IMG/VR virus record: IMGVR_UViG_3300032007_000009
Length of the DNA: 64,000 nucleotides
Reading direction: 5' to 3' (one strand)
Origin: a virus
Taxonomy: Duplodnaviria > Caudoviricetes
Shown one piece after another: positions 2,495-40,290 of this stretch. Position 1 is the stretch's first letter. Every line of letters begins with the position of its first letter. The notes beneath the pieces were generated by a model. That model made no database searches and had not been told where the DNA came from. It worked only from the letters and a program-made list of their open reading frames with translations. The position numbers were made by a program, and so were the translations under genes.

Positions 2495-2539
2495 TAAATC
2501 TTAAAAATAAATATATGTAAATCAAAAATAAAATAACTT

Positions 2540-2565
2540 AAGGAACTATTAAATTAGTTCTTTTT
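2540..2565 (+). terminator. Intrinsic terminator
   Basis: AAGGAACTA-TTAAAT-TAGTTCTTT stem followed by a T run. Confidence 0.55.
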
Positions 2566-2600
2566 GTTTTCTATATTATATTTAGAATATTTATATTTAT

Positions 2601-3983: not shown

Positions 3984-4008
3984 GGAACCATATTAGGTTC
4001 CTTTTTTT
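3982..4008 (+). terminator. Intrinsic terminator
   Basis: AAGGAACC-ATATTA-GGTTCCTT plus a T tract right after the stop codon. Confidence 0.8.
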
Positions 4009-4046
4009 ATTTTTATATATATACAAATATATTATAATTATAATAG

Positions 4047-4445
4047 ATGAAAACTGTTTTAAAACATGAATATAAACTAAAGAAAATTATTGCAGATAAT
4101 TTAGAAAATGCAATTAATAATAGATATATTGAAATAGCTGATGACGAATATGAAAGAATAAATACAGCAATAGAATCTTATAGTAATGCAATACAAGAAG
4201 TATATGATAATTTACAAGATGTTGCATTTACTGAACCACAGAAATCTAAGTTATTATCTGATTTAGAAAAATTAGAAGCAGATATTTTAGCACTTAAACA
4301 AGATACAATATACACTATAGAAGATGGATTATATTTCACTGATGAAAATGGTAATATTGCTGCTAAATTAGATTCAAACGGATTACGTGCTGTTAATATT
4401 GGTGGATCAACTAGTTCTGGTGATATAACTGCATCTGACTATTAA
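4047..4445 (+). CDS. Hypothetical protein, possibly virion or fibre associated
   Basis: Helical N-terminus plus an EDGLYFTDENGNI beta motif; first gene of the LRR/GH2 cluster. Confidence 0.5.
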   Translation: MKTVLKHEYKLKKIIADNLENAINNRYIEIADDEYERINTAIESYSNAIQEVYDNLQDVAFTEPQKSKLLSDLEKLEADILALKQDTIYTIEDGLYFTDENGNIAAKLDSNGLRAVNIGGSTSSGDITASDY

Positions 4446-4463
4446 AAAAATTAATTAATTAAA

Positions 4464-6140: not shown

Positions 6141-6167
6141 GAAATAAAATATAAATAATTAATATAA

Positions 6168-8471: not shown

Positions 8472-8498
8472 TATATACTATAAAAACGAAATTAAATA

Positions 8499-8530
8499 AA
8501 AATGGATATGGTTAAACCCATATCCATTTT
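8499..8530. terminator. Bidirectional terminator hairpin
   Basis: AAAATGGATATGG-TTAAAC-CCATATCCATTTT between convergent genes. Confidence 0.75.
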
Positions 8531-8907
8531 GTTTCTGATATTGTAGTTATTCGCATATTCTCCAAGCCTTGTGATATATATTCTTTCATTATTTGATGTA
8601 CTTCATCACTTGTTTTTGCAAACACAGGTAAAGTATATTTAATTGTTTTTATAGTACCATCTTCCTGAAATATATCTTCTGCTACTTTAACTGCAAATAT
8701 TTTACTATCTTCATACCATTCATTTGCTGCAGGTTTGAAACTTTTCATTAAACATATATCTTCAATTTCAATTCCTTTACCTATTTTATTAATTATTTTA
8801 ATACTTGCTTCAGCGAAATGAACAGCTTCAGTAAAATATGTTTCTATAACTCTTTTATCTTTACCATGAAGATTAACAGTTCTATTTAATTTAATCTTAA
8901 AATACAT
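8512..8907 (-). CDS. DUF4494-like protein (Bacteroidota family)
   Basis: ETYFTEAVHFAEA and the C-terminal ITTISETK resemble DUF4494. Confidence 0.55.
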   Translation of the reverse strand: MYFKIKLNRTVNLHGKDKRVIETYFTEAVHFAEASIKIINKIGKGIEIEDICLMKSFKPAANEWYEDSKIFAVKVAEDIFQEDGTIKTIKYTLPVFAKTSDEVHQIMKEYISQGLENMRITTISETKWIWV

Positions 8908-8945
8908 AATATTATTTTAATATAATTTAATCTTAAAATACATAA
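8887..8945 (-). repeat. 23-bp direct repeat duplicating the start of the 8512..8907 gene
   Basis: TAATTTAATCTTAAAATACATAA at 8887-8909 and 8923-8945. Confidence 0.9.
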
Positions 8946-8977
8946 CCTCTATATATTTATCTTTAATTATAATTAAA

Positions 8978-9445
8978 TTATTCACTAAATTCAACTACTT
9001 TTGATCCACCATAAGGTCCATACATCCCTAATAGTTTTTCTGAAGCACTTGCATCAAAACGTAAACTATCTTTTTTGAATAATATTTCTTTATCTTCTGC
9101 ATCACTAATAAAACTGTTTCTATTCATAACAGACATATTATTTTTTTTAAAGTCTTTAGCTATTTTATTATCTTTAAATTTATAACCTGCAAGAATAAAA
9201 TATTTAAATTTAGTAGCATCCCATTTATTCTTTGATAAGAAATCTTCAATTTTTTTTATCATTTCCTTTCCTTCTTCTTCAGTTAAAAATGGTTCTTTTT
9301 CAAGTCTCCCACTATCAGGTTCATATAACTTATCAATTTCAAAATGATCCCAGATACTTTGCATTTCTGGTGACATTGAATTATTAACTTTAGTATCCTT
9401 ATTAATTACTAATTTTTCATTTATAATGTCTTTAAGGTTTTTCAT
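8978..9445 (-). CDS. Tagged putative head internal protein
   Basis: N-terminus MKNLKDIINE-KLVINKDTK. Confidence 0.6.
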   Translation of the reverse strand: MKNLKDIINEKLVINKDTKVNNSMSPEMQSIWDHFEIDKLYEPDSGRLEKEPFLTEEEGKEMIKKIEDFLSKNKWDATKFKYFILAGYKFKDNKIAKDFKKNNMSVMNRNSFISDAEDKEILFKKDSLRFDASASEKLLGMYGPYGGSKVVEFSE

Positions 9446-9771
9446 AATATAAAATCTTTTATTTCTTTATATAATTTATCATTATATGCTTCTATATAAT
9501 CAACAAGTTCTTGATACTTTATTCCTACTTCATTATATAACTTTGGATAATCACCTAACCTATCTAATACATCACATATTTTATTATTAAATTTTTGTTC
9601 CAATAAATCTAAACCTGGTTTGTATTTTACATTTTTATATTCAAGTGTTCCTTGAAAATATCTGCATAATACTTCAGAAATTTTATCCTGTTCCTTTTGT
9701 GATAAGTAATCAAACTTAGTATTTTTATTGATAATTAGTTTTTCTGTTATAAAATTAGTTATTTGTTTCAT
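9442..9771 (-). CDS. Tagged putative head internal protein
   Basis: N-terminus MKQITNFITE-KLIINKNTK. Confidence 0.6.
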   Translation of the reverse strand: MKQITNFITEKLIINKNTKFDYLSQKEQDKISEVLCRYFQGTLEYKNVKYKPGLDLLEQKFNNKICDVLDRLGDYPKLYNEVGIKYQELVDYIEAYNDKLYKEIKDFIL

Positions 9772-9781
9772 ATTATTTATT

Positions 9782-10834
9782 TTAATTTAATATATTATCT
9801 AATTCATAAACTCCATCTTTAGGTTTGTTTGAAATAACATCAATTACTTTTTGTTCTATTTCTTCTAATAATTCAGGATTATCATTTAATAAATCAATGA
9901 CAGCTTGCTTGCCTTGTCCAAGTTTTACTTCTCCATAACTGAACCAAGATCCCGATTTATGTATGATATCATATTCAATTGATTTGTCTATTATTTCTCC
10001 AAATCTATTAATACCTTTACCAAACACAATTTCAAATTCTGCTTTTCTAAATGGAGGCGCACATTTGTTTTTTACAACTTTTACTTTTGTAAGATTCGCT
10101 ATAGCATCTTCTCCATCTTTTACTTGAGAAGACTTTCTAACTTCTAATCTTATTGATGCATAGAATTTCAATGCATTACCGCCAGTTGTTGTTTCAGGAT
10201 TACCAAACATAACACCAATCTTTTCTCTTATCTGATTAATGAATATACATAAGCAGTTTGATTTTTTGATAATACCTACCATCTTACGTAATGCTTGTGA
10301 CATTAATCTAGCTTGAAGACCAATTCTTGCATCTCCCATAGCACCTTCCAATTCAGCTTTAGGTATCAATGCTGCAACAGAATCAATAACACAAATACCT
10401 ATTTTTCCTGAACTTATTAATTTTGTTGCAATTTCCAAACAGTCTTCACCACAGTCAGGTTGAGCAAACAATAACTTATCTACATCAACACCAAGATTTG
10501 CTGCATAATCTCTATCAAATGCATTCTCGGCATCTATGTAAGCAGCCTTAAGACCCATCTTTTGTGCTTCAGCAACTGCATGAATTGCAAGTGTTGTCTT
10601 ACCGCAACTTTCAGGTCCATATATTTCAACTATTCTCCCTTTTGGGTATCCTCCAATACCTAAAGCAACATCTAAAGATAATGATCCTGAAGGAATAGTT
10701 TCAATATCCATAACTTCCGATTCTCCCAAAAGCATAACTGTTCCTTCCCCATATTGTTTTTTAATTTCCTTCAATACAGATTCTAATTCATTATCTATAC
10801 CAAATTCTTTATCTATAATATCTTTCTTTGACAT
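9782..10834 (-). CDS. recA: Recombinase RecA
   Basis: [54 protein letters not shown]. Confidence 0.97.
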
Positions 10835-11270
10835 AGGTATTAAACAAAAATTTTAATTAACTATATTATATTTAATAATATAAATTAATTTTTATAAATA
10901 TTATATAAATATAAATGAGAGAATTTTTTGAACTAGTAAATGAATATCCATTGACTACAGTATTTTTAGTTTTTGGTTGTTGTTTTATACTGCAATATAT
11001 AGGAGAAGCTATTCATGGTCCTAAAAAAATAATCATTATTGATAATGATAAAAAGAATAAAAAATAATATGTATAAAAAAGAAACAACATGTAAATGTAT
11101 TAAAGATTTAGAATTTGAAGATATTCAATTTCATAAAGGACGTGAATACCAAGTAGATATATATCCTCTATATTATCAAATATATCAAAACGGTGGATGG
11201 AATGATTATATATTTATGGAAGGAGAAGATAAATTTAATGAATATTTTAAAGAAATTAAATAAACATAAT

Positions 11271-11389
11271 ATTCATCTTCTAGACCTTTAAAAATTCACA
11301 AAATTTTCACAGTAATAAATTATATTAAAAACTAATTTTATAAGCTTAGAAGATGAATAACCGCTATCTATGAATGAATTTTAATATAG
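11271..11389 (-). ncRNA. Candidate structured ncRNA / long hairpin
   Basis: 12-bp perfect inverted repeat (11271-11282 / 11347-11358) with extended imperfect pairing; CTATATTA motif on the minus strand at 11382-11389; no ORF. Confidence 0.35.
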
Positions 11390-11420
11390 TTTATCATAAA
11401 AAATATTTTACATAAAATTA

Positions 11421-11696
11421 ATGATTAGAGAACATATAAAAAATAAGGTTTATGAATGCGTTAGAAAAAGATTTTATGACCCTAAGATATTTAATAATTT
11501 AATAAGTATTTATCCTGATAATGGAGAAGATTTACTAATATATTCTGAAATTGGTTTTGATAGTTTAGATGTAGTAGAATTTATTTTATCATTAGAAGAA
11601 ACATTTAAAATTGTTTTACCAGATTATTTATTTAATTCAGAAGTAACTTTAAGAATAATTATAGATTATATATATGAACAAAGAAAGAATATTTGA
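11421..11696 (+). CDS. Acyl carrier protein-like
   Basis: GFDSLDVVEFILSLEETFKIVLPD phosphopantetheine attachment signature. Confidence 0.8.
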   Translation: MIREHIKNKVYECVRKRFYDPKIFNNLISIYPDNGEDLLIYSEIGFDSLDVVEFILSLEETFKIVLPDYLFNSEVTLRIIIDYIYEQRKNI

Positions 11697-12771
11697 ATCA
11701 TTTAAAAACTTTAATAGTCATAGTGATGATTATTTAGGTGCATTTTTTATTAATTGTTTTAATGAATTTCCACAATTATATAGAGTATATTTTGATGAAT
11801 TAGGAAATATTGTATATCATAATGGGATGAATTCATTTTATAATATTAGAAAAAATATTAAATACCGAGTTGATAGTCGTAAGACAATTATAGAAATTAA
11901 TAAAGATAAAGAAAAATTAAATTTAGAAGTATTTAATTATTCTGCTAATGAATATTTTATATTAGGGTATTTTGAAAATATTCCTATATTAATTAATATT
12001 ACATTAGGACAAGATGGTGAGATGGCAGATTATTATGAAGAGATATATACAACAAATATTGAAGTAGTATTTGAATACGTTAAAAAATATTTCTTTAAAG
12101 CTGAACATAAAAATAATACAGAATTTGGTATTGCAGCTTCTGATGCAACTCGTCAATTATATACTTCATGGTTTGAATATACACCTCAAGAAGTAGATAT
12201 CAAAACAAATTATAATGATGATCTTCCTTATGATAGAATTTGTAATATATTAGAACAGGAACATAAACCAGAATTATTATTTTTTTATGGACCTGCAGGT
12301 ACAGGTAAGACTACTTTTATAAAACATCTTATTGGAAAGTATCCCGATAGAGATTTTGTATTTATAGATGGATCATTATTATATGAATCGTCACAAGAAA
12401 AACTCATGACATATTTCTTAGAAAATCAGAACACAATATTTATATTAGAAGACTGTGAAAAAATATTAATGAGTAGAGAAGATGGATTTAATCCTGTTAT
12501 GCCAATACTATTAAATATTACTGATGGAATTATCGGAGATGTTTTAGGAATTAAGATAATTTGTACATTTAATACAAATATAAATAAAATAGATGATGCA
12601 TTAAAACGTAAAGGACGACTTTCACTAAAATATGAATTTAAGAAATTAAATAAAGATAAGGTTAAAAATATATTACCTGATGAAAATCAAGATATGACAT
12701 TAGCAGATATTTATAATATAAAGATTGAAAATGATTATAGTAAAAAAGAAACTAGAAAAATAGGATTTTAA
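11674..12771 (+). CDS. AAA+ ATPase
   Basis: Walker A GPAGTGKT, Walker B FILEDCE, IDDALKRKGR second region of homology; C-terminal KIGF. Confidence 0.85.
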   Translation: MNKERIFESFKNFNSHSDDYLGAFFINCFNEFPQLYRVYFDELGNIVYHNGMNSFYNIRKNIKYRVDSRKTIIEINKDKEKLNLEVFNYSANEYFILGYFENIPILINITLGQDGEMADYYEEIYTTNIEVVFEYVKKYFFKAEHKNNTEFGIAASDATRQLYTSWFEYTPQEVDIKTNYNDDLPYDRICNILEQEHKPELLFFYGPAGTGKTTFIKHLIGKYPDRDFVFIDGSLLYESSQEKLMTYFLENQNTIFILEDCEKILMSREDGFNPVMPILLNITDGIIGDVLGIKIICTFNTNINKIDDALKRKGRLSLKYEFKKLNKDKVKNILPDENQDMTLADIYNIKIENDYSKKETRKIGF

Positions 12772-12776
12772 TATTT

Positions 12777-13316
12777 ATGGAAGAAAATATTTTATTAGGT
12801 AAAATAGAAAATGATAATAAAACTTGTTCATGGCCAACACCTGAACGTGAAGCTAAGACAATAGAAATTATCAATAACATGCAGCAACAAATACCGCAAG
12901 AATTATTAGATAATATAAAAAATTCTGATTTAATGAAAATAAAATCTAAATCTTTATATCAATGGGGTTTAGAAACTGCATTAACATTAGAAAATATTGA
13001 TAAAGAAATTAATTTATTTATGATTGCTCAAGATCCAAAAACAGGAGAGATCACTCATATATGTCATTCTTGCGATACTGATGATCTTGAGAAAAGAATA
13101 GATAAATTAGTAAGAATGATTAATAATGCATGTTATGGGGTAAGAGAACATAATAATGAACCAGTTGCAAATGAAATATTTACTATTATAGCTAATGTTT
13201 GTGCTGCATATTGTGCTCAGTCTGAAGATACATTCAAAAGTTTTATGCATGTAGTTAAATATTTTATAGATATTAATAAAGAAGCAGAAGAAAAAACTAA
13301 AGAATCTCAAACATAA
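12777..13316 (+). CDS. Hypothetical protein
   Basis: 179-aa ORF in operon context. Confidence 0.6.
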   Translation: MEENILLGKIENDNKTCSWPTPEREAKTIEIINNMQQQIPQELLDNIKNSDLMKIKSKSLYQWGLETALTLENIDKEINLFMIAQDPKTGEITHICHSCDTDDLEKRIDKLVRMINNACYGVREHNNEPVANEIFTIIANVCAAYCAQSEDTFKSFMHVVKYFIDINKEAEEKTKESQT

Positions 13317-13524
13317 GATTTTTCATATTTGAACCTATAGTAAGATGCTTATTAGATGGATATACAATAACTTCAAATAATATTTCATTATTTTTTTGAT
13401 GTATATCCATTATTTTGCATTTAATATCAAATTTTGGAAAAAACTCACAATCTGATTTAAATCTTACTTTTTTTAATAAAAGACTATATATAGTTTCTAA
13501 TGATAAATCTTTTATAAATTTCAT
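13297..13524 (-). CDS. Hypothetical protein
   Basis: 75-aa ORF with an ATG start that fills an intergenic gap. Confidence 0.5.
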   Translation of the reverse strand: MKFIKDLSLETIYSLLLKKVRFKSDCEFFPKFDIKCKIMDIHQKNNEILFEVIVYPSNKHLTIGSNMKNLMFEIL

Positions 13525-13568
13525 ATTATATCTATATTATATATTATATTAATTTAAAAATAAAATAA

Positions 13569-14753
13569 ATGGAACAAGAAGAACGTTTTTGTAGTTTTTG
13601 TGGTAAATCAATTAATGAAACAGATATTTTGTTTAGTGGTAATGATGGATATATTTGTGCAAATTGTCTAAAAAGATGTAATGATGAATTAGAAAAAAAT
13701 TCAAGAACAGTAAATAGTCATACATTAGCAGGTGTACCTAAACCTAAAGAAATTAAAGAATTTTTAGATAAATATGTAATTGGACAAGATAAAGTTAAAG
13801 AACGAATATCTGTAGCAGTATATAATCATTATAAACGTATTAATACTGAAACAGAAAATGATGTTGAAATTGATAAATCAAATATACTAGTTGTAGGTCC
13901 AACAGGTTCTGGAAAAACACTTATTGCAAAAACTGTAGCAAAACTTCTTAATGTACCTTTTACTATTGGAGATGCAACGGTTTTAACTGAAGCAGGATAT
14001 GTTGGTGAAGATGTTGAATCACTTTTAGTTAATCTTTATCAAGCTGCCGATTATGATGTTGAAAAAACAGAAAGGGGAATTGTATTTATTGATGAAATAG
14101 ATAAAATTGCACGTAAAGGAGATAATGCTTCAATATCTCGAGATGTATCAGGTGAAGGTGTTCAACAAGGTCTTTTAAAACTTCTTGAAGGATCTATTGT
14201 TTCAATTCCTCCTAAAGGTGGTCGTAAACACCCAGATACTCCATTAGTAAAAATTAATACAAAGAATATATTATTTATATGCGGTGGAGCTTTTGTAGGT
14301 ATTGAAGATAAAGTTAAGAATAGATGTAATAAACAGATAATTGGTTTTAATAGTCCAACAAAAAATGATTTAGATGAAACAGATTATTTAGATATGTTAA
14401 ATCCAATTGATTTAAAGTCGTTTGGACTTATTCCTGAAATTATTGGACGATTACCAATTATTACTCATACAAATGAATTAGATAGAAATGCATTAATAAA
14501 AATTCTTAAAGAACCAAAAAATGCATTAATTAAACAATATAAAAAATTATTTTCTCTTGATAATGTAAATCTTGAATTTACAGATGAGGCATTGGAATAT
14601 ATTGTAGATAAAACACTTGAATATAAACTTGGTGCTCGAGGACTTAGAAATGTTATGGAAGATATAATGAATTCAGCAATGTTTAATAGTCCTTCATCAG
14701 ACGTCAAAGAAATAATAGTTGATATTGATTATGTAAAGAATCAAATAGGGTAA
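13569..14753 (+). CDS. clpX: ATP-dependent Clp protease ATP-binding subunit ClpX
   Basis: CSFCGK...ICANC zinc finger, GPTGSGKT, GYVGEDVE pore loop, RKH loop, IGF loop, GARGLR. Confidence 0.96.
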   Translation: MEQEERFCSFCGKSINETDILFSGNDGYICANCLKRCNDELEKNSRTVNSHTLAGVPKPKEIKEFLDKYVIGQDKVKERISVAVYNHYKRINTETENDVEIDKSNILVVGPTGSGKTLIAKTVAKLLNVPFTIGDATVLTEAGYVGEDVESLLVNLYQAADYDVEKTERGIVFIDEIDKIARKGDNASISRDVSGEGVQQGLLKLLEGSIVSIPPKGGRKHPDTPLVKINTKNILFICGGAFVGIEDKVKNRCNKQIIGFNSPTKNDLDETDYLDMLNPIDLKSFGLIPEIIGRLPIITHTNELDRNALIKILKEPKNALIKQYKKLFSLDNVNLEFTDEALEYIVDKTLEYKLGARGLRNVMEDIMNSAMFNSPSSDVKEIIVDIDYVKNQIG

Positions 14754-14770
14754 CTAATGTTACCCTATTT
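14743..14770. terminator. Perfect 12-bp hairpin; bidirectional terminator and possible DGR target hairpin
   Basis: AAATAGGGTAAC-TAAT-GTTACCCTATTT. Confidence 0.8.
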
Positions 14771-14784
14771 TTTATGTATATAAA

Positions 14785-15744
14785 TTAATAAGTAATCATA
14801 GCAACAACATAGTAGCCAATGCTCTTATAGTTGCTGCCGATGGCGCCATTATAAGTATAGACGTAGTATGCGTTATAACTATCATACGCAGTAGAGCTCC
14901 AATAGTAGTGACTAGCTAACGAAGTAACACAATCAGTTGAATATATTGCAGAAATTTGTGCTAACTTAGTATTTATATCGTTACGTAAAGCAACTATCAT
15001 ACTCATTTCACCACCCGCACCAAGATACCAATCTCCTGCATTTGTTCCTACAGTATGATAGCGAGCACAACAACAAGCAGCAGGAGCATAGTTTTCATCT
15101 GAATTATTTGTTATTGATGTATCTGTCATCCATGTTGACTGTGCTGTAGCCGTAGCAAGAATCTTATCTGTTTTGTTTTTACCATCTATATCTGTTACTA
15201 CATATTGGTTTGCTGTACCTAATACAGATGTATTCCATTCGTTATTTGCATCAAATACAGATGGAATTAAACTATATGTTTGTGTTTGCCATGATGTAGT
15301 TAGATAACCATAATTATATCCACCATGATGAGTATATTTTATATTAGCAATAGTAGATATGTTTATTCCACTATTACCCCAACCCATGTCTTGTACTGTT
15401 AATGATCCAGTTTCTGGTGTTGTATAGTTCATATATTTAAGTGACATAAAACGAGCAGGTTCATTCTCACCAAAGAATCCAGTTTTAGCAACGCAGATAC
15501 CAATAGGAGTATAACCCAAGCTTGGATCTAATATAGTTGAATCAACTTTCTTTTCTCCATTAGCATTAGCATAAAGTATATCTAATATATTATATGATGG
15601 CGGTGCAATATATGTATTATAGTGTACTTCATTTTGTTGTTTACATAATGATACAGTTGGTTTACCTTCAGTTTCTGGAAATTCAGAACCAACTAAATAT
15701 TCCTCATATAAAGAATGTTCAGAAAAATGTTTAAGATATTTCAT
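14785..15744 (-). CDS. C-type-lectin-fold (DGR-target-like) protein
   Basis: DWYLGAGGEM and YYWSST motifs; Tyr/Ser/Asn-rich C-terminal variable-like segment with anomalous NNC codons. Confidence 0.75.
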   Translation of the reverse strand: MKYLKHFSEHSLYEEYLVGSEFPETEGKPTVSLCKQQNEVHYNTYIAPPSYNILDILYANANGEKKVDSTILDPSLGYTPIGICVAKTGFFGENEPARFMSLKYMNYTTPETGSLTVQDMGWGNSGINISTIANIKYTHHGGYNYGYLTTSWQTQTYSLIPSVFDANNEWNTSVLGTANQYVVTDIDGKNKTDKILATATAQSTWMTDTSITNNSDENYAPAACCCARYHTVGTNAGDWYLGAGGEMSMIVALRNDINTKLAQISAIYSTDCVTSLASHYYWSSTAYDSYNAYYVYTYNGAIGSNYKSIGYYVVAMITY

Positions 15745-15888
15745 ATAATATTTGAATATTATTTATTTTTTTACTATATTAAATTTGTAATTAATTTAAT
15801 AATTATAATTAAAAATAATCAATGATATTAATAATTTTTCTGAGTTGTAATCTTGATAAAATTATGTAAAAGTAAATAAGAAGTATAT

Positions 15889-16134
15889 ATGAAAATATCA
15901 AATGGTTCTAAAGATCGATGTCGACAAAAGTTTCAGTATAAAGGTATTGGTAAAATTATAAATAGAGTTTGTAATTTGTTTGAAAATGAAGATATTGAAG
16001 CCATTATATCTGAATGTATTTATGATTCAGATAATCCAATAATGTATAATGTTTTACTTTATTTAATTAGAGAAAATTGTAAAGATAGTAAAATTATAAA
16101 TGAATTAAAAGATTTTCAATACATCTATGAATAA
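15889..16134 (+). CDS. Hypothetical protein
   Basis: 81-aa ORF whose end overlaps the mnmA start. Confidence 0.5.
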   Translation: MKISNGSKDRCRQKFQYKGIGKIINRVCNLFENEDIEAIISECIYDSDNPIMYNVLLYLIRENCKDSKIINELKDFQYIYE

Positions 16135-17287
16135 GATAGCACTTTTACTTTCAGGTGGTGTTGATTCTTCAGTTGCATTACATATACTTTGTTCAACTGG
16201 AGAAAAGCCTGATTGTTTTTATATACATATTGGTCCTGATGAGAAGGATTCATATAGTTGTACATCTGAGGAGGATATTGAGATGGCTTCAGCAGTTGCT
16301 GCAAAGTATGGGTGTAAGTTTGAGATAATTGATTTACATAAGGAGTATTGGGATAATGTAGTATCATATACAATGGATAAGGTAAAAAATGGTTTTACAC
16401 CTAATCCTGATGTTATGTGTAATACATTAATTAAGTTTGGTGCATTTTACGATAAGGTTGGATATAAGTATGATTATATTGCGACTGGACATTATGCAAC
16501 TAAAGTGGGATATGCAAATGGTAAATGTAAAGATGTACCAGATTGGGTAACACCTAATCATTTTTTACCAAGTGAAGTCGAGTGGTGGATTTGTCCTGCA
16601 AAAGATCCTGTGAAGGACCAAGTTGATTTTATTGCAAATATTGATACAAAGAAAATTCCTATTTCAAAGATTATATTTCCTATTGGTAATCTTATGAAGG
16701 ATGAAGTTCGAAAGATTGCTGAGGAAAATCATTTAATTAATGCTAAGCGTAAGGATTCACAAGGTATTTGTTTTTTAGGCAAGATAAATTATAATGAGTA
16801 TATTAAGAAGTATCTTGGTACAAATCCTGGTGATATTATTGATATAGATACTAATAAAAAAATAGGTATTCATTATGGACATTGGTTTCATACAATAGGT
16901 CAACGTAAAGGTTTAAATCTTTCAGGTGGTCCATGGTATGTTGTATTTAAGGATATAAAAACAAATATTGTTTATGTATCTAAAAATAAGGAATGTATGA
17001 ATACAAATGAATTCTATATTAGAGATATAAATTGGTTAACAAAAAATTTATGTGAAAATATTGAAAATAATTCAAAATTTATTTGTGATATTAAATTTAA
17101 GGTTAGACATTCTCCTGAAGTATATAATGGAAAATTGATGTTAACAGATGAATCAAATATATTAAAAATTATTTGTGATACTCCTATGAAAGTTGCAAAT
17201 GGTCAATTTTGTACATTATATGATAAAGATTATTATCATTGTTATGGAACAGGTGAAATGATTCAAAAAATACAAATAAATCAATAA
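16127..17287 (+). CDS. mnmA: tRNA-specific 2-thiouridylase MnmA
   Basis: SGGVDS PP-loop, TPNPDVMCN, ATGHYA, KDQ, KDSQGICF, TIGQRKG. Confidence 0.95.
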   Translation: MNKIALLLSGGVDSSVALHILCSTGEKPDCFYIHIGPDEKDSYSCTSEEDIEMASAVAAKYGCKFEIIDLHKEYWDNVVSYTMDKVKNGFTPNPDVMCNTLIKFGAFYDKVGYKYDYIATGHYATKVGYANGKCKDVPDWVTPNHFLPSEVEWWICPAKDPVKDQVDFIANIDTKKIPISKIIFPIGNLMKDEVRKIAEENHLINAKRKDSQGICFLGKINYNEYIKKYLGTNPGDIIDIDTNKKIGIHYGHWFHTIGQRKGLNLSGGPWYVVFKDIKTNIVYVSKNKECMNTNEFYIRDINWLTKNLCENIENNSKFICDIKFKVRHSPEVYNGKLMLTDESNILKIICDTPMKVANGQFCTLYDKDYYHCYGTGEMIQKIQINQ

Positions 17288-19768: not shown

Positions 19769-19909
19769 ATGATTTATTGTAGCTTAACAGATAATATTAA
19801 ATGTCCTAAATGCGGATCTTATCATGTTTATATTAAATCAGGAATGATGACTGATTTATATATATGTATGGATTGTGGATTTGAATCTCGAGATATTGAA
19901 AATGGGTAG
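19769..19909 (+). CDS. Small zinc-ribbon protein (46 aa, not in the ORF track)
   Basis: MIYCSLTDNIKCPKCGS...ICMDCGFES; ends in TAG. Confidence 0.6.
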   Translation: MIYCSLTDNIKCPKCGSYHVYIKSGMMTDLYICMDCGFESRDIENG

Positions 19910-19925
19910 ACTTAAGTCTACCCAT
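19902..19925. terminator. Perfect 24-bp palindrome, bidirectional terminator
   Basis: ATGGGTAGAC-TTAA-GTCTACCCAT at a convergent junction. Confidence 0.8.
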
Positions 19926-19974: not shown

Positions 19975-20370
19975 TTAAATATCTTTATAAAATTGAATCC
20001 AATTTTCTGGTTCATCTTCAACTTCTTGTAAAAACTCTTCAACTTTATCTAATGTTAATACAATAGCTTTAGCAAAATTATCTGTTTTTAAATCACAATA
20101 AGGGTCATCATCATAATTTATTGCACCAATTTTACCTATCCAAAGTTTCCATGTTTTTTCTTTATCAACATAACCTAACAAGAAATGAATAAATATATTC
20201 TTTTCTTTATCTTCATGTTTATATTCTATTTTCTGATATTGTTCACCATTATTAAGCCATGTTACTTTTTTATCTGGAGATTTCCAAATAGTAAATTTTA
20301 TATTGCCACGACGTGTGGTTTTCTTTTCATCTTCATCAGATTCTCTAATGTATTGTATGATTGATTTCAT
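19975..20370 (-). CDS. Tagged putative head internal protein
   Basis: N-terminus MKSIIQYIRE. Confidence 0.6.
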   Translation of the reverse strand: MKSIIQYIRESDEDEKKTTRRGNIKFTIWKSPDKKVTWLNNGEQYQKIEYKHEDKEKNIFIHFLLGYVDKEKTWKLWIGKIGAINYDDDPYCDLKTDNFAKAIVLTLDKVEEFLQEVEDEPENWIQFYKDI

Positions 20371-20375
20371 AAAAA

Positions 20376-20648
20376 TTATCTATCACCTTCTTTTTCATCT
20401 GGAGCTAAACGAACTTTAAATTCAATACTATCGCCAACTCTTGTTAAATCTTCTAAACTACGTAATGCTGATGTGATAATATGAAAACGATTTTCATCAG
20501 CTTCTAAATCAAATTTAATTGCTTTAGCACCTTCACGAATACAATTACAAAATTCATCTAATTCATCAACATTACAAAGTATTGTTCCATTAGATTTATA
20601 TCTTTTTGCTTCTCTACGTTCAGATATTAATTCTTTAATATTTTTCAT
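20376..20648 (-). CDS. Tagged putative head internal protein
   Basis: N-terminus MKNIKELISE. Confidence 0.6.
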   Translation of the reverse strand: MKNIKELISERREAKRYKSNGTILCNVDELDEFCNCIREGAKAIKFDLEADENRFHIITSALRSLEDLTRVGDSIEFKVRLAPDEKEGDR

Positions 20649-20776
20649 ATTTTACTAAATTGTATTAAGTAACATGCAGAGTTATCTTCTCTTACGGTAC
20701 CAATAATATTTTTTTTACAGTTATTAAATTTTTTTTCTTTTATATAGTATTTGCAATTAATGCATTTATCTTCCAT
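20645..20776 (-). CDS. Small Cys-rich protein (43 aa, not in the ORF track)
   Basis: MEDKCINCKYY...NCKKN...SACYL; its TGA overlaps the next ATG. Confidence 0.5.
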   Translation of the reverse strand: MEDKCINCKYYIKEKKFNNCKKNIIGTVREDNSACYLIQFSKI

Positions 20777-20854
20777 TTTATTTATCTAATCATTATATTT
20801 GATTATATATTAAAAAATAAACATTTTAATATTTTTTTATAATGATTTATAATA

Positions 20855-22516
20855 TTAAATTGTAAAATTTGAATCTGCTAATATATAATTTAATTTAGTT
20901 TCATATTTTTTACTAAGTTTTTTCATTGTAGCATTATCATTATTTGTAATGAATTCAATCATCCCATCAATATTTTTTATAAATTTATCGATTTCTTTTT
21001 CATTAATATCAAATTCAGCATCAGTTATAATAACATTTATAAGATATTCTTTTGTATGATCTTTCATATATTCTAATAATTGATGGAAAGGCATTGTTCC
21101 ACCTCCAACATTAGTTTTCTTACCAAATTGAATTTCTATCATACTAGTATCAAATGCATATATCTTAAATGTTACATCATCAACAATAGTTTCTTTAGAA
21201 TATTGTTTCTTTAATGATTCAGCTATTGTATATAATGCTTTAAATACATTATTTATTGAACTACCCATTGAACCAGATCTATCAATATAAAATGCAACAT
21301 TAATTGTAAATTTTTCTTCTTTAATTTTTCGTCCAGGTTGAATAGGTTGTCCATATTTTATAAATCCTGAACCACGTTTAACTCTTGAATATGTTGATTG
21401 ATATTCACGTTTCTTTTGAAATACTTTCTTTTTAACAAATGTATTAATAGATGAATTCATTTGTTTATTCCAACCACCTATTCCATTATTTGTATTTGTA
21501 GCTAATCCAGATTCTTTAAGTTCTACAGATTTTTTACACTTAGATATAAATGTTCCTAAATCACCACTTAATTTATTTTTATATTTTTCAATTATTTTAT
21601 CAGCCTTTTCTTTAATCTTTTTTAAATCAGCATCAGATAATTTAGCTTCTTTATGACCTTTACCTGCTTTATGTCCTTGAGCTTCTTTATTACCTTTTTG
21701 ATCGTTTCCTTGACTTTCCTTACCTTGACCTTCTTTACCTTGACCTTCTTTACCTTGACCTTCTTTACCTTGACCTTCTTTACCTTGACCTTCTTTACCT
21801 TGACCTTCTTTACCTTGACCTTCTTTACCTTGACCTTCTTTACCTTGACCTTCTTTACCTTGGCCTTCCTTACCTTGACCTTCCTTACCTTGACCATTTT
21901 GATTATTTCCTTGTTCGTCGTTTTCTTGTTCTTTATATTTAGGATCCTTTTTTATATCATCTATTTTATTTAGAAGTTTCATATATAATGTGTATTGAGT
22001 ATCGACTTTACGATCATATTTAATACCAAATTGTTCATATATATATTCTGGTGTAATTAAATTATCTGGCATATCTTTTTTACGATAATATGAAAGATAA
22101 TCATTAATTATACAATCAGATGCATAGTTTAATAATTTATGATCATATTTATCTTCACCATGTTTTTCTTTTATTTTATCACCAACTGCAAATGTATCCC
22201 AAAGCTGATGTAAACATTCATGATCATATATAAAATCCCATTGACGAATTTTTTCTCCAATACGTCCAGGACAATTTAGATATATTAAATGATCTGGTGT
22301 AGTATATGCAATACTATTATCATCAGGATGTAAAAATCTTACAAATTCAAGCATATCATAGAAGAATATATCATTATCATTATCTGCACTATCATTGATA
22401 TATTCTAATGTTTTAACTCTGAAATTTTCTTTATGATCTATTTCTGAAATTTCAATAAGACTTTCTTTTACATATTTAAAATCTTCATCATTTAAAAGTG
22501 AACTCTTTATTTCCAT
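20855..22516 (-). CDS. HExxH metallopeptidase-like + low-complexity linker + VWA domain protein (DUF2201-like MoxR partner)
   Basis: IAYTT...HECLH...NYASDCIIND; MIDAS YIDRSGSM, GGGT, IITD. Confidence 0.85.
   Translation of the reverse strand: MEIKSSLLNDEDFKYVKESLIEISEIDHKENFRVKTLEYINDSADNDNDIFFYDMLEFVRFLHPDDNSIAYTTPDHLIYLNCPGRIGEKIRQWDFIYDHECLHQLWDTFAVGDKIKEKHGEDKYDHKLLNYASDCIINDYLSYYRKKDMPDNLITPEYIYEQFGIKYDRKVDTQYTLYMKLLNKIDDIKKDPKYKEQENDEQGNNQNGQGKEGQGKEGQGKEGQGKEGQGKEGQGKEGQGKEGQGKEGQGKEGQGKEGQGKEGQGKESQGNDQKGNKEAQGHKAGKGHKEAKLSDADLKKIKEKADKIIEKYKNKLSGDLGTFISKCKKSVELKESGLATNTNNGIGGWNKQMNSSINTFVKKKVFQKKREYQSTYSRVKRGSGFIKYGQPIQPGRKIKEEKFTINVAFYIDRSGSMGSSINNVFKALYTIAESLKKQYSKETIVDDVTFKIYAFDTSMIEIQFGKKTNVGGGTMPFHQLLEYMKDHTKEYLINVIITDAEFDINEKEIDKFIKNIDGMIEFITNNDNATMKKLSKKYETKLNYILADSNFTI
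21716..21895 (-). repeat. 12 x 15-bp tandem repeat encoding (GQGKE)12
   Basis: Near-perfect GGTCAAGGTAAAGAA units. Confidence 0.97.
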
Positions 22517-22520
22517 TATA

Positions 22521-22982
22521 TTATTTACCTAAATATTTCTTTAAATTATCACGTATTCTTAATGTATATTTATCAGCTATAGAATGACGATAAGGATGAA
22601 TTTTTTTACATTTTTGTTCATAATATTGTAAAACATATTGTAAAAATTCCTTTGGTTCTTGGTCTAAATACGTTTTTAATTTTTCGTATCTACCCCATGG
22701 CATATCAAATCTACAAAAATCCCTAATATCTTTCTCATCAAATTCTTTTTTATTTTGACGGTTTTTACGTAATTTATCTAATATAACTAATTGAATATCA
22801 CGAATTTTATTAATTGTAGTATCGTATTTTACCATGTAAGGTTCTTTTTCTGATTTAGAAAATGCCATATTAACACATTCATAATCATGACGAAGTTCTT
22901 CATCAGTAAATTCCTTTTTACGAACTGTCGTATTTTTATTAATACGAAGGCCTTCTTGTATATAGTTAGTTATTTGTTTCAT
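22521..22982 (-). CDS. Tagged putative head internal protein
   Basis: MKQITNYIQE-GLRINKNT. Confidence 0.65.
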   Translation of the reverse strand: MKQITNYIQEGLRINKNTTVRKKEFTDEELRHDYECVNMAFSKSEKEPYMVKYDTTINKIRDIQLVILDKLRKNRQNKKEFDEKDIRDFCRFDMPWGRYEKLKTYLDQEPKEFLQYVLQYYEQKCKKIHPYRHSIADKYTLRIRDNLKKYLGK

Positions 22983-22983
22983 T

Positions 22984-23382
22984 TTATCCTTTTACCTTTG
23001 CTAATATTAAACCTTGTTTATTATACATTGATTTTATATAATTTTCAGTTGCTTTACTATTATCCTGATGATTAATTAAAAGAAATTCGCCTTTTATAAA
23101 TTTTTCCCAATAATAACCTGGTGAAGCTTGATAATTTCCATTGTCTAATTTTTTTAACCAATAAAATTTATCGTCATCATCTGAATCTCGTTTAATCATA
23201 ACTATTGCTTCTTCTGGAGATTCAGCATAATCATCAATAGGTTGATCTTTACCTATTGAATGATAATATTGTTCATCAGTATTTTTTATTTGAATATTTA
23301 AACCACCTTCAATATGTTTTTTTATTTTAGTATTTTTATTAATACGAAGGCCTTCTTGTATATATGATGTTATTTGTTTCAT
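22984..23382 (-). CDS. Tagged putative head internal protein
   Basis: MKQITSYIQE-GLRINKNTK. Confidence 0.65.
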   Translation of the reverse strand: MKQITSYIQEGLRINKNTKIKKHIEGGLNIQIKNTDEQYYHSIGKDQPIDDYAESPEEAIVMIKRDSDDDDKFYWLKKLDNGNYQASPGYYWEKFIKGEFLLINHQDNSKATENYIKSMYNKQGLILAKVKG

Positions 23383-23388
23383 ACAAAT

Positions 23389-23730
23389 TTATTGATATAA
23401 TTCTTTATAATAAGGTTTTAAATTAGATATTGGTTTTGATATTGTTCTATAAGATACACATCCATGTTTATAAATTTGTGAATTTTCATCCTTAATTACA
23501 AAATGTATACCATCATTAATAGCTTTATTATATTCATGAGAAAGATCAAAATCAATATAGTATGATTTTTCTCCAGAAGGATTAATATATTCTATTGTAT
23601 TTAATTGAGGTACAACACAAAACTGATAAAAATCATCATCAGTATTAAAATACATTGTATTTGATTTAATTTTCTTAAACATAAATTTATAGTTATTTCC
23701 AATTTTTAGGATGTTCAGTTTCCCATACAC
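23389..23730 (-). CDS. Hypothetical protein (true start probably downstream, at MFKKIK)
   Basis: ORF in operon context; untagged. Confidence 0.55.
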   Translation of the reverse strand: MYGKLNILKIGNNYKFMFKKIKSNTMYFNTDDDFYQFCVVPQLNTIEYINPSGEKSYYIDFDLSHEYNKAINDGIHFVIKDENSQIYKHGCVSYRTISKPISNLKPYYKELYQ

Positions 23731-24106
23731 CCCTACTTGGATTTGATAATATATTTCTTATTTTTAAATCTGTAAAAAGTTCATGATAATGTGAAGGCGT
23801 ATTTCCTTTTACTCCTTTAACAACATCTTCCTTTTTAGAAGGTCCATTATAATATAAATAACAATAGAATGAATACCAATTAACATTATTACCATATTTA
23901 GTTTTACGTTTACTATATGGATAATTTGAATTTCTATTGTTAAGTTCTTTTAATTTATCATCAATTAATTCATCTAATTCAGGAATATCACAAGTTGTAT
24001 ATAATTTAGAATCTTTTAATTCTTCATCACTATAAACATGTTTATCAAATTTAAGATTTTTATTAATTTTTAACCCTTCTTTTAAATATGTATTAATGTT
24101 TTTCAT
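23693..24106 (-). CDS. Tagged protein with probable winged-helix domain
   Basis: MKNINTYLKE-GLKINK; YLYYNGPSKKEDVV...FTDLKIRNIL...RGVWE. Confidence 0.55.
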   Translation of the reverse strand: MKNINTYLKEGLKINKNLKFDKHVYSDEELKDSKLYTTCDIPELDELIDDKLKELNNRNSNYPYSKRKTKYGNNVNWYSFYCYLYYNGPSKKEDVVKGVKGNTPSHYHELFTDLKIRNILSNPSRGVWETEHPKNWK

Positions 24107-24114
24107 AATTTAAA

Positions 24115-24429
24115 TTATACCCATTCTTCAATAGGTTTTGCTTCTAATTTTCTAGTTTTCTTATTAGGAACTATAATATTACGTTTAGATAATTTAGCAA
24201 ATTCAGTTGAATAACTAGTTACTTGTAATCCAAAATGAGATAATAAATCAACTTTAGACATAGGACCTTCATTTAATAAGTATTCCCACCATTGAGCCCA
24301 AAGATATTTTTCTCCATTCTTTTTGGTCATTTTATATTTTGCATTAGTATCGTCTACACTCATTTTTTTAAATTTTGTATCTTTACTAATGCTAAGACCT
24401 TCATCTATAAATTCAATAATGTTTCTCAT
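24115..24429 (-). CDS. Tagged protein with probable winged-helix domain
   Basis: MRNIIEFIDE-GLSISKDTK; YLLNEGPMSKVDLL...FAKLSKRNII. Confidence 0.55.
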   Translation of the reverse strand: MRNIIEFIDEGLSISKDTKFKKMSVDDTNAKYKMTKKNGEKYLWAQWWEYLLNEGPMSKVDLLSHFGLQVTSYSTEFAKLSKRNIIVPNKKTRKLEAKPIEEWV

Positions 24430-24437
24430 AATTGTTA

Positions 24438-25673
24438 TTAATCTTCTTCAGGATCTGAATATCCTTTCTTTTTCCATTCTTCATTTTTCTTAAATTTAAA
24501 TGTTATACCGTCAGCTTCAAATTTATTGATTATTCTTTCTAACATTTCAGCATTACAATCATCAGAATCTACAATTGCTCTAATATTTTCTTCAGATATT
24601 CCATATTTAACGCCGTCTTGTTCGATATATCCAAATTTCATACCTTGCTTTATGGCAGTTTTAATATTTTCATCTACCATGTTTATATCTTTTGATTTAC
24701 GACCACTTCTTCCTGATGATTCTTCTTTTTTATCATCATTTTTTGAATTCATAAAACTATATATATCGTCTGCTAATTTTTTAACATTATTTTCTTGTGT
24801 TCTAGTTAAATCTTCTTTAATTAATCCTTCAAGACGATCTAAATAATCTTCTGCATCAAAATAGTCAGTGTCACCATCTTCTTTCATTTTATAAATGAAT
24901 TTAAATATTTTTTGCTCAACTTCACGAGGATTTTCAAATACTTCTGCATTATCTTCAAATTTATCAATTAATTCTTTAGATAATTTTTCATCCCAATTTT
25001 TATGTAAATATTTAAAAGCATCTTTCCAAGAATCCCCACCAGTTTCCCAAACAATAAGTGGTTTGAAACGTGAACGTAATGGACCAGATAATTCATTAAC
25101 TGCACCATTTTCTGATTCAAAGTTACCGGCAGCGCCAACAAAGAAATTATCGAACTTACGACCACAAATTTCATGTTCTAAAACAATAGGCATAAGAGCA
25201 TTCATTACATCAGGAGCTGCCTGATTCATTTCATCAAAGAATAATAAGAATTTTTTATTAGGGTTATCTTCCATTATTTTAGCCCATGCAGGCATTGCCA
25301 TTTCTTGTACAGCACCCTTTTTACCTTGAACAGGAATAGGAATACCACCAAGGTCAGATGCAACAGCTTTATCAAGATAAACAGTAACTACATCTCTTTT
25401 AAATTTACTAGCTAAATTTTTAATAATTGATGTTTTACCCCAACCTGCTTCTCCAATAATAAAGAAATCTTCTTCAGTTTTAAACTTCATAAGAAGTCTT
25501 TTCATATTCTTACTAAGATTCTTTTTGTCTATTTCTTCGGCAGCATCATCATCTTTAGGTTCATTTACACCCCATTTTCCACCTTTTAATCCATTTTTTT
25601 CAGCTTCTTCACCCTGAACTTGTTTTAAATTAGGTTCTTTACTTTCAATAAAAAAAGAATATAAATTTTTCAT
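24438..25673 (-). CDS. MoxR-type AAA+ ATPase with N-terminal tag
   Basis: GEAGWGKT, SDLGGIP, LLFFDEMNQA, AAGN, LSGPLRSRF, NPR; begins MKNLYSFFIE. Confidence 0.88.
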   Translation of the reverse strand: MKNLYSFFIESKEPNLKQVQGEEAEKNGLKGGKWGVNEPKDDDAAEEIDKKNLSKNMKRLLMKFKTEEDFFIIGEAGWGKTSIIKNLASKFKRDVVTVYLDKAVASDLGGIPIPVQGKKGAVQEMAMPAWAKIMEDNPNKKFLLFFDEMNQAAPDVMNALMPIVLEHEICGRKFDNFFVGAAGNFESENGAVNELSGPLRSRFKPLIVWETGGDSWKDAFKYLHKNWDEKLSKELIDKFEDNAEVFENPREVEQKIFKFIYKMKEDGDTDYFDAEDYLDRLEGLIKEDLTRTQENNVKKLADDIYSFMNSKNDDKKEESSGRSGRKSKDINMVDENIKTAIKQGMKFGYIEQDGVKYGISEENIRAIVDSDDCNAEMLERIINKFEADGITFKFKKNEEWKKKGYSDPEED

Positions 25674-25760
25674 TTGTATTAATGTTTTATATTTTATATA
25701 TATATATTAAAAATAAATAATATACTTTATATAAATAAAGAATGAATGATTTAAAATCAT

Positions 25761-26219
25761 TCATTCTTCAACATCAGAGACCAATAAGAAAAATTTCATT
25801 AATTCTTCCATATCATTTACATATGTAGCTATTGCATTAGTTCCTGCTATATTTTTTACTAAGTTCATTGTTGCATCAAATGATTTAATATCGTGTTTTT
25901 TCCATTTTTTACTATATAATACAACAAATATTACTTTATTAACTGATGTACCATACATATTAGCTAAATGAGCAGAATGAATAACTTCAGCAATAGAATA
26001 TGTACCTAACATTTCTTCGGTAATAACATATAGATGAACTCCACATTTATTATTTTTTTCATCTTCTTCAATTTCTTGACATTCAGGAGTCCAATCTTCC
26101 ACTACAGGATTAAAATATGGGATTTTATGTTCTTCTAATAATGGAATCAATTTATCTCTCCATTTACTATTATTACATGTACCACCTAAAAACCATTTAT
26201 CGTTCTTATTTTTCTTCAT
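25761..26219 (-). CDS. Nucleoside 2-deoxyribosyltransferase-like protein
   Basis: FLGGTCNNSKWR...YFNPVVEDW...YSIAE; start reassigned to MKKNKND. Confidence 0.75.
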   Translation of the reverse strand: MKKNKNDKWFLGGTCNNSKWRDKLIPLLEEHKIPYFNPVVEDWTPECQEIEEDEKNNKCGVHLYVITEEMLGTYSIAEVIHSAHLANMYGTSVNKVIFVVLYSKKWKKHDIKSFDATMNLVKNIAGTNAIATYVNDMEELMKFFLLVSDVEE

Positions 26220-28225: not shown

Positions 28226-29120
28226 AATCTGTTTTATTATCTCTATTTTTTCCTATATGGTACCCATCACAAAACAGACATTTATAATATGAAAAATGAG
28301 TATTATGTTTTGCTCCCATTTTTTCTGCCGACTTACGAGCAGTTTCAATAGTATTATACATTACTTTAGGTTTACCCGTATGTTGATTAATATGACTATT
28401 TATTGAAAATGCTCCCCATGCATTTCTAGTTATAAAGAAATTTATTATAACTCTTTTACGTTTTACTTGGTCCAAAAACCATATCCAAAAATTTCTAAAT
28501 TTTATTTTAGCCATAGTTTTTTTGTAACATTTTAATTTCTTCTGTAATAACTTTTAATTCTTCAGTATAATTAGGATCTATCCACTTAAATCTATGAACA
28601 AACAATTTACTTCGATTTTTTTTATCTATTTTACCTTCAGTATTAAATCCATAATTACACATATTAAAAATAATTTGTGTACATTCCATGTCTTTACGGG
28701 TTTCTATATGGCAATCTATAATACCAATATTGTCTGCTTGTATTTTTTGTAATTTTTTTAATACTTCATTTGGTGTCATTTTATTTCTATTTCATATATT
28801 TCAAATTCTCTATCTGGGAATTGTTTTTAAGCATCAATGCATGTATTTTAAATTTTAATTTTATGTGCATATTTTTGTAGATCATTTATATCACGTTCTT
28901 CAATAAATATTTTTGTAATTACATCACAATTTTTAATTCTATGTATTAAATCATTTTTAAATTCTTCTTCATCATCATATTCTTCAGTATATGTCCATCC
29001 GCCAATATTCCAAGGATGTTCCAAACAACTCCAAAATGAAGGGTCATCAATATTTACATAATTTTTAGGTAACCCATTATTTTCAAACATTAAATATTCA
29101 ATACAATAAATTTTCTTCAT
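28209..29120 (-). CDS. Three hypothetical genes (28209-28514 with CxxCxxxH, 28507-28779, 28848-29120)
   Basis: Overlapping or adjacent ORFs in one operon. Confidence 0.55.
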
Positions 29121-29722
29121 TATAATATTTTAGATATAATTTTGTATTTCTTTGCTTGTTCAGCAGTAATATACCAATCCTTTTTACATTTATATATCTC
29201 ATCAAGTTTATCATCAGGTATTGCAGTATTTTCTTTATAAATGTTCCACATTATTTTATGCAATCGTTTGCATTCTTCTGCATTTTCTTCAATATCTTTA
29301 ATTTTACCAAATGTTCCACCTGCTAATGTATGATACATAAATGTTGTTGAAGGATATGCAAAACGATGTTCATAATCAGCAGCTAACATTATAATTGTAC
29401 CTGCACTCATTATTTTACCAACGCAATAAATATTTACTTTATATTCATCTTTTAATGATTTTATTTCATCATATATTGATAACATATCATAAATATATCC
29501 ACCAAATGTTGATAAATAAATATTAATAGATGGACGTATAATTTGTGCTTCGATGCCAACTGACATTAATGATGCAACATTTTGATCTACAATATCATCA
29601 TCAGCACTTTTAATTTCATTTATTTTATCCACAAGAGTTTGCCACATTTCTTCGTCAACATCTCCTTTAAGATATATATTATGTATTTTAGTATCAAATG
29701 TTTTAATTGTAAATTCTGGCAT
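29120..29722 (-). CDS. clpP: ClpP-like protease
   Basis: IYLSTFGG, KIMSAG (Ser), FMYH (His), KDWYITAEQA (Asp). Confidence 0.85.
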   Translation of the reverse strand: MPEFTIKTFDTKIHNIYLKGDVDEEMWQTLVDKINEIKSADDDIVDQNVASLMSVGIEAQIIRPSINIYLSTFGGYIYDMLSIYDEIKSLKDEYKVNIYCVGKIMSAGTIIMLAADYEHRFAYPSTTFMYHTLAGGTFGKIKDIEENAEECKRLHKIMWNIYKENTAIPDDKLDEIYKCKKDWYITAEQAKKYKIISKIL

Positions 29723-40248: not shown

Positions 40249-40290
40249 TTTTATATTAGATTTACTATATTATATAAAAATTAAAATAAT

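Follow-up and report, generated by a model that had tools for sequence, protein, structure and literature searches.

The gene pair closest to the subject of this analysis has been described in T4-related (group 2.2) jumbo phages, in which a MoxR AAA+ ATPase accompanies a metallopeptidase-vWA protein; the pair has been proposed to serve the assembly of virions together with peptidolytic processing (Iyer 2021, PMC7824862). The counterpart treated here lies in a stretch of 64,000 nucleotides from IMG/VR virus record IMGVR_UViG_3300032007_000009 (Duplodnaviria; Caudoviricetes), referred to below as the window. An earlier reading of this stretch, here called the original prediction, had pointed to a minus-strand run with a MoxR-class ATPase, a protein with HExxH and VWA motifs, and genes whose products open with a shared N-terminal tag, below called the leader; all ten minus-strand open reading frames (ORFs), from 25673 down to 19975, and the domains have been confirmed. 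We give a probability of about one half to the explanation that these genes form a lineage-specific version of the described phage ATPase and metallopeptidase-vWA module, in which the ATPase is recruited to the prohead core through a leader resembling the capsid-targeting sequence (CTS) of phage T4.

In the published pair and in the module described here, the neighbour of the ATPase gene encodes a zinc metallopeptidase domain at the N-terminus and a vWA domain at the C-terminus, and the phage is huge and T4-related. The likeness rests on domain layout and gene order, on phrog_1297, and on an alignment over the zincin motif with the neighbour of the ATPase in phage ABPH49. There are also differences: here the two are separated by a conserved gene of 97 amino acids (aa), some 60 additional residues at the N-terminus of the ATPase open with the CTS-like leader, leader-bearing genes stand between the core genes, and the protein that joins the zincin-type peptidase to the VWA domain matches neither a PHROG nor a Pfam VWA model by sequence. 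The ATPase leader, the clade-specific third gene and the inserted leader-bearing genes are additions of this lineage to the described pair. The original prediction had held the arrangement to be undescribed, which is true only in part, since the ATPase and metallopeptidase-vWA pair as such is known (PMC7824862), while none of the papers searched links a MoxR/vWA pair to capsid targeting or to CTS leaders.

Bacteria have vWA-MoxR ternary conflict systems with linked zincin peptide-processing modules, the zincin cleaving small, rapidly diverging proteins with a conserved terminal peptide (Kaur 2020, PMC7159879). Like these, the phage locus combines MoxR, vWA and a third constant component with a zincin and many small proteins sharing a short terminal peptide. 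The third component of the bacterial systems is VMAP or iSTAND; here its place is taken by the 97-aa orphan, which searches of Pfam, PHROGs, NCBIfam and PDB folds assign to no family, and the variable effector domains found C-terminal to the bacterial vWA have no equivalent in the phage protein, which ends with its vWA domain in all 9 aligned homologues. Unlike the bacterial arrangement, too, the zincin is fused ahead of the vWA, the shared peptide is N-terminal and T4-like, and the genes form a late phage operon. In the Acidianus two-tailed virus a MoxR-vWA pair is needed for tail development (cited in PMC7824862); compared by description, both viruses have a MoxR-type ATPase with a vWA partner, which there acts in virion morphogenesis, though that virus is archaeal and its pair has no peptidase domain or leader. 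A weak hint from elsewhere is given by mass spectrometry of virions of Staphylococcus jumbo phage DC4, among whose proteins was an ATPase encoded beside a metallopeptidase, with a warning from the authors about carry-over; the DC4 metallopeptidase shares the VWA domain with the protein discussed here (hhalign 84%).

The genomic background is that of a T4-related jumbo phage. A public contig of 289,687 bp carries the exact ATPase sequence of the window, whose own contig is at least that long; the window itself (G+C about 25%) encodes topoisomerase II, UvsX, QueC, an NAD-dependent ligase, a thymidylate-synthase-like enzyme and a ClpP-like protease, and relatives encode a prohead protease and Gp23.

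Core proteins of the module

The ATPase matches Pfam AAA_5 (PF07728) with 35 bits (cut-off 22) and phrog_1297 at 6e-31, while its 13.9 bits against AAA_3 (PF07726), the model of MoxR proper, fall below the cut-off of 27. With a profile of 11 orthologues, the best solved relatives are the AAA modules of midasin (2.7e-21), and CobS is also found; by these profiles the ATPase is MoxR-class in the broad sense, on the AAA_5/CbbQ/midasin side of the class, and not a MoxR proper. The 11 orthologues keep Walker A (GEAGWGKTS, 25428-25454), Walker B (LLFFDEMNQ, 25221-25247), GAAGN and the arginine motif PL-x-SRF, and a C-terminal domain of about 90 residues is conserved as well. The protein opens with the leader MKNLYSFFIE (25644-25673), followed by a charged extension of about 50 residues; the distant Vequintavirinae ATPases have no N-terminal extension, their Walker A starting at about residue 40.

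The N-terminal part of the zincin-VWA protein scores 27.6 bits against DUF2201_N (PF13203; cut-off 23.2), and among the homologues the window protein alone reaches this Pfam threshold. Its zincin motif HECLH (H99-E100-x-x-H103, at 22208-22222) is invariant in 9 homologues, as are D412-x-S414-x-S416 (DRSGS, at 21269-21283) and D499 of the metal-ion-dependent adhesion site (MIDAS), and most of them keep the threonine of GGGT; with the zincin motif and the MIDAS Asp/Ser residues invariant, both activities have probably been kept. The zincin motif also aligns with the protein encoded beside the ATPase of Acinetobacter phage ABPH49 (hhalign 91.5%). The top Foldseek matches in PDB to an AlphaFold2 (AF2) model of the C-terminal half are all VWA domains (probability 1.00), and this half is predicted to be a VWA fold with a MIDAS site. 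Model confidence (pLDDT) is 71 overall and about 85 in the two domains, which are joined by a disordered linker (residues 198-290); the linker is always of low complexity and is hypervariable, ranging from about 90 to more than 400 residues, with homologue totals of 546 to 995 aa. No tblastn match to the protein was found at 1e-5 in 50,697 GenBank phage records, and a profile search of PDB sequences returned low-complexity noise only. A conserved segment near its N-terminus, SLIE(I/V)SE, was considered as a hidden cut site or tag and rejected, since the model places it within a helix predicted with high confidence (pLDDT about 90).

The third core gene starts at an ATG at 23682, which corrects an earlier GTG start at 23730. 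Its family, with the motif F-D-x-D-D-D-F-Y-x-F-C, has at least 130 metagenome homologues, none of them named and none with a Pfam domain, and the 97-aa protein has no match in Pfam, PHROGs or NCBIfam. Its AF2 model is confident (pLDDT 88); the best Z-score against 48,161 PDB representatives is 2.9, so no fold has been assigned. It is unrelated to the products of the small genes beside the ATPase genes of the Vequintavirinae phages FFH2 and ABPH49 (hhalign below 1%), and no fusion of it into a longer protein was found, which is weak evidence. A predicted complex with the zincin-VWA protein scored 0.00 in a run without controls and speaks neither for nor against an interaction.

Conservation and expression of the core

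The ATPase, the 97-aa protein and the zincin-VWA protein are encoded together in all 17 related loci examined (L001 to L010 from IMG/VR; L028, L031 and L070 to L072 from public assemblies; and one place without DNA). The 97-aa gene adjoins the ATPase gene in all of the relatives, though in some of them one or two leader-bearing genes intervene, and where there is no insert it is tightly coupled to the zincin-VWA gene, by gaps of 2-16 nt or by overlap. In the window the order on the minus strand is ATPase, two paralogous small genes, the 97-aa gene, two small genes and the zincin-VWA protein; these first seven ORFs (25673 to 20855) are spaced by just 2-9 nt, and a gap of 78 nt then precedes a small four-Cys ORF and two further small genes. 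Among the relatives, the large terminase lies 4 kb from the module in L070, Gp23 lies 9.5 kb from it in L071, and the prohead protease about 15 kb from it in G003 (L034 to L054), a relative of 410 kb whose completeness is rated at 97%. A T4-type prohead protease (PF03420) is encoded by both of the complete or near-complete relatives.

In the window, and likewise in most relatives, the ATPase gene is preceded by the motif TATTTTTA(A/T)(T)ATATA. In G003 this motif precedes 38 genes, the annotated ones including those for tail sheath, tail tube, tail fibre and head-tail adaptor, which marks it as a late promoter class. It recurs before the four-Cys micro-ORF, so the cluster consists of two late units, the second being made up of the micro-ORF and the last two leader-bearing genes; in L001 this second unit is found upstream of the ATPase. 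The same motif also precedes the gene at 4047 and a leucine-rich-repeat (LRR) gene at 43523-45532. The late promoter of T4, TATAAATA, occurs 56 times in the window against 41 expected, which is no enrichment, and not at all upstream of the operon; this phage uses another late motif. A different class, CTATATTA, precedes the topoisomerase, ligase and exonuclease genes of the window; written as (T/C)TATATTA(T/A), it is seen 20-35 nt upstream of these and of many small genes, for example at 2560-2600, 40250-40290 and 53860-53900. In G003, leader-bearing genes amount to 33% in late-motif units against 13% in the other promoter class (p = 4e-5). The late-type expression and the neighbouring head genes fit a virion-related role for the module.

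The N-terminal leader

The leader was defined as the N-terminal 10-mer M-[KR]-x-[ILM]-x-x-[FYLI]-[ILF]-x-E. It opens 10 of the 107 genes called in the window, where chance would give 0.19 N-terminal matches. In T4 the CTS, MKTYQEFIAE, is removed after loading by the gp21 prohead protease (PMC8442874, PMC3012670). Both peptides are about ten residues long, start with M-K, have hydrophobic residues at 7-8 and other positions, end in Glu and are found on otherwise unrelated proteins. The T4 CTS is confined to a handful of genes, whereas here about 10-20% of all genes carry the leader, an AAA+ ATPase among them. Unlike the T4 peptide, many copies here run on into a conserved linker, E-[GK]-L-x-I-[NS]-K-[ND]-T-K. 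This extended form is found on four genes of the cluster and on two genes at 8978-9771, which follow uvsX immediately on its own strand, almost without a gap.

On the ATPase the leader is a conserved feature. The family has 807 members at E <= 1e-20; in the best 120 ortholog clusters, on which the counts were made, the strict leader is present in 99 and a hydrophobic-x-Glu within the first 28 residues in 119, usually followed by a basic patch. Many orthologues (P0123-P0242) have two leader-like hydrophobic-x-Glu sites in tandem within the first 30-60 residues. An AT-hook-like motif, G-R-P-(R/K), occurs in 14 of the 120 clusters and suggests that the mature N-terminus of the ATPase may bind DNA.

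An alternative is that the leader is not an address at all but the conserved 5' end of an expanding gene family, maintained as a recombination cassette or as an aid to the start of translation; the module would then be an ordinary cytoplasmic assembly chaperone or a counter-defence device, located by chance where genes of this family accumulate. Several observations are in keeping with this: leader DNA is almost identical between the adjacent genes 22521 and 22984, extended-leader genes occur in tandem arrays in relatives, and the leader opens about 20% of genes (in G003, 114 of 508, or about 22%, against 15 of 388 in an internal-Met control). However, the leaders of the ATPase orthologues differ in sequence while keeping the pattern M-[KR]-x-L-x-x-[FY]-h-x-E, a sign that the peptide is under selection; in the 20,031 residues of the window genes the leader pattern is never matched internally; leader-bearing genes are enriched in late units, as noted above; and the leader is found on unrelated proteins, namely the ATPase, a possible winged-helix protein and others (for six leader-bearing payloads no credible match was found in Pfam, PHROGs or NCBIfam). 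We regard this explanation as unlikely.

Leader-bearing genes around the core

The original prediction had noted leaders on the genes of the cluster, the ATPase included, and in fact seven of the ten leader-bearing genes of the window fall within this ten-gene cluster (hypergeometric p = 5e-7). It had suggested that the interleaved genes may be clients packaged together with the ATPase/VWA machine, which would refold or activate them after ejection or load them into the head. As the prediction's own synteny check had envisaged, the core stays fixed in all of the loci and the leader-bearing genes between and around its members vary, from none to seven: there is no insert, and hence no leader-bearing gene, between the core genes in L002, L004, L005, L006, L009, L010, L070 and L072, while there is one in L003 and L071, two in L001 and L031, four in the window and seven in L028. 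Every inserted gene inspected bears a leader, usually of the extended form, and in the closest relatives all genes between the core genes have it in that form.

Some placements are also kept. Orthologues of the 24115 gene are inside the module in L001, L028 and L031, those of the 22521 gene immediately before the gene for the zincin-VWA protein in L028 and L031, and those of the 19975 gene beside the module in L001, L028 and L031; these three loci are close relatives, syntenic with the window overall, so shared descent is sufficient to explain it. In L071, with 57% ATPase identity, an array of extended-leader genes, at least 16 in number (1920-17211), encloses the module. The leader in that array reads M-x-x-I-N-N-F-I-Q-E-K-L-K-I-N-S-K-S-K, with several copies running into Y-x-Y-H-P-K, as in LRR/BspA-like phage proteins, and two of the proteins match DUF285.

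In G003, 18 of the 32 genes within 12 kb of the module bear a leader, a density equalled in only 7% of 24-kb windows, but 96 of the 114 leader-bearing genes lie more than 12 kb away, and its 43 extended-leader genes, in about 8 tandem arrays, include none within 8 kb of the module. These 43 share a near-identical 18-residue extended leader, MKKLNQFITEKFRLSKDN, and make up a very large multigene family defined by its N-terminus alone. In another relative, G004, five extended-leader genes are found at 8 kb or less from the module, a number that 12% of genome positions equal or exceed. With most leader-bearing genes of G003 so distant, the core contiguous in at least seven relatives, and the zincin-VWA partner itself without a leader, the tie between the module and its leader-bearing neighbours is a loose one, and we consider the proposal of dedicated clients distinctly improbable. 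The leader-bearing neighbours probably share the timing and destination of the module without being its specific clients.

Proposed role of the module

From the CTS-type leader and the charged extension that follows the putative cut site, we infer recruitment of the ATPase to the prohead, and its trimming there. The module would be transcribed from its late-type promoter, the ATPase would enter the scaffolding core of the prohead by means of its leader, and a T4-type prohead protease would trim it after the leader Glu, where a basic or charged extension follows. The ATPase might then act in head assembly or maturation, or stay as an internal head protein, while the zincin-VWA and 97-aa proteins, which lack the leader, would either ride in on the ATPase or work with it before packaging. 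The leader-bearing genes between the core genes would belong to the very large set of such genes in this phage and may have entered the late operon by duplication and by recombination at near-identical leader DNA.

A number of points weigh against prohead recruitment of the module. The leader is never found on the zincin-VWA protein or the 97-aa protein, in the relatives or in the window, so that only part of the machine would be directed to the head. The roughly 20% of genes that bear it in G003 would be a very large set for one capsid, and so many may mean that the leader signifies something other than packaging. The leader-bearing genes behind uvsX (8978-9771) are outside any obviously late unit, so not all such genes sit in units of that kind. 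No prohead protease gene is found in the 64-kb window, PF03420 being seen in the relatives only; the DC4 ATPase is only weakly similar to the one here (hhalign 18%); and the phage is uncultured, known from its sequence.

A more ambitious version would make the core trio a handling machine for some 100 leader proteins, in which the MIDAS binds the invariant leader Glu and the machine unfolds, loads or trims the cargo as it enters the prohead; this we rate as quite improbable. The binding target of MIDAS domains is an acidic residue of the ligand, as in Rea1/midasin. Also improbable is the related idea that the module reads and processes the leader genome-wide, independently or upstream of the prohead protease, with the MIDAS binding Glu, the AAA+ ring pulling and the zincin cutting: it can draw on midasin as the closest solved AAA relative by profile, on the invariant zincin motif and MIDAS residues and on the bacterial zincin that cleaves small proteins with a shared terminal peptide (PMC7159879), but the leader matches a T4 CTS that gp21 cuts without any such module, the relatives encode a gp21-type protease, so that the T4 parallel supplies a simpler reader, and a leader on the ATPase itself would be odd for a reader.

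Neighbouring genes and other features

The features of the locus are given in Table 1. The products of the 24115 and 23693 genes, which the original prediction had called winged helix-turn-helix (wHTH)-like, are paralogues (E = 4e-7), while the wHTH assignment stays a guess from sequence pattern; the payload, with W-x-x-W-W-x-Y-L ... G-P-M-S-K ... S-Y-S-T-x-F-A-x-L-S-K-R-N-I-I, possibly resembles a small winged-helix domain. Its family has 56 representatives at the 50% identity level (P0243-P0298), and its members have widely varying leaders or none, or form the C-terminus of larger leader-bearing proteins (about 230-360 aa), which argues that the leader is a modular add-on. The four-Cys micro-ORF is conserved in L001 with 71% identity. 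A gene for a ClpP-like protease (29120-29722; phrog_94, 4e-30) lies 3.5 kb upstream of the operon, amid nucleotide-metabolism genes, and would be a second phage protease beside the T4-type prohead protease of the relatives.

Table 1. Coordinates of the module genes and of associated sequence elements in the window, in order of decreasing position
Feature	Position	Strand	Size	Remarks
Terminator-like hairpin	25736..25770	-	16 pairs	Closes the upstream gene and bounds the operon
Late-type promoter motif	25701..25715	-		TATTTTTAATATATA; 28 nt before the ATPase ATG
MoxR-class (AAA_5) ATPase	24438..25673	-	411 aa	Bears leader
Extended-leader gene	24115..24429	-	104 aa	MRNIIEFIDEGLSISKDTK; possible winged-helix payload
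Extended-leader gene	23693..24106	-	137 aa	MKNINTYLKEGLKINKNLK; paralogue of the 24115 gene
Core protein	23389..23682	-	97 aa	No leader; motif YFNTDDDFYQFCV
Extended-leader gene	22984..23382	-	132 aa	MKQITSYIQEGLRINKNTK
Extended-leader gene	22521..22982	-	153 aa	MKQITNYIQEGLRINKNTT
Zincin (DUF2201_N) and VWA fusion	20855..22516	-	553 aa	No leader
Tandem repeat in linker	21640..21939	-	15-bp unit	Encodes GQGKE about 12 times
Second late-type promoter motif	20804..20819	-		TATTTTTTAATATATA; 28 nt before the micro-ORF
Micro-ORF	20645..20776	-	43 aa	Four Cys
Leader-bearing gene	20376..20648	-	90 aa	MKNIKELISE
Leader-bearing gene	19975..20370	-	131 aa	MKSIIQYIRE, then acidic patch
Perfect hairpin	19902..19925	.	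10 bp, 4-nt loop	Between convergent genes; probable end of transcription unit

Implications

If the neighbouring genes are only co-located with the module, what remains is a known module, usefully annotated. Should the ATPase really enter the head, an energy-dependent remodelling enzyme would take its place among the packaged or prohead-internal proteins of a phage, and a pair of genes common in huge phages would gain a concrete function. The conserved leader of the ATPase offers a simple experimental handle, and the three-gene core defines the set to be co-expressed. Were the core trio to handle the leader proteins at large, the virus would encode a protein-sorting system of its own, allowing an unusually large capsid payload. 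The arrays of leader-bearing genes, built by cassette-like insertion, bear on how such large protein payloads evolve.

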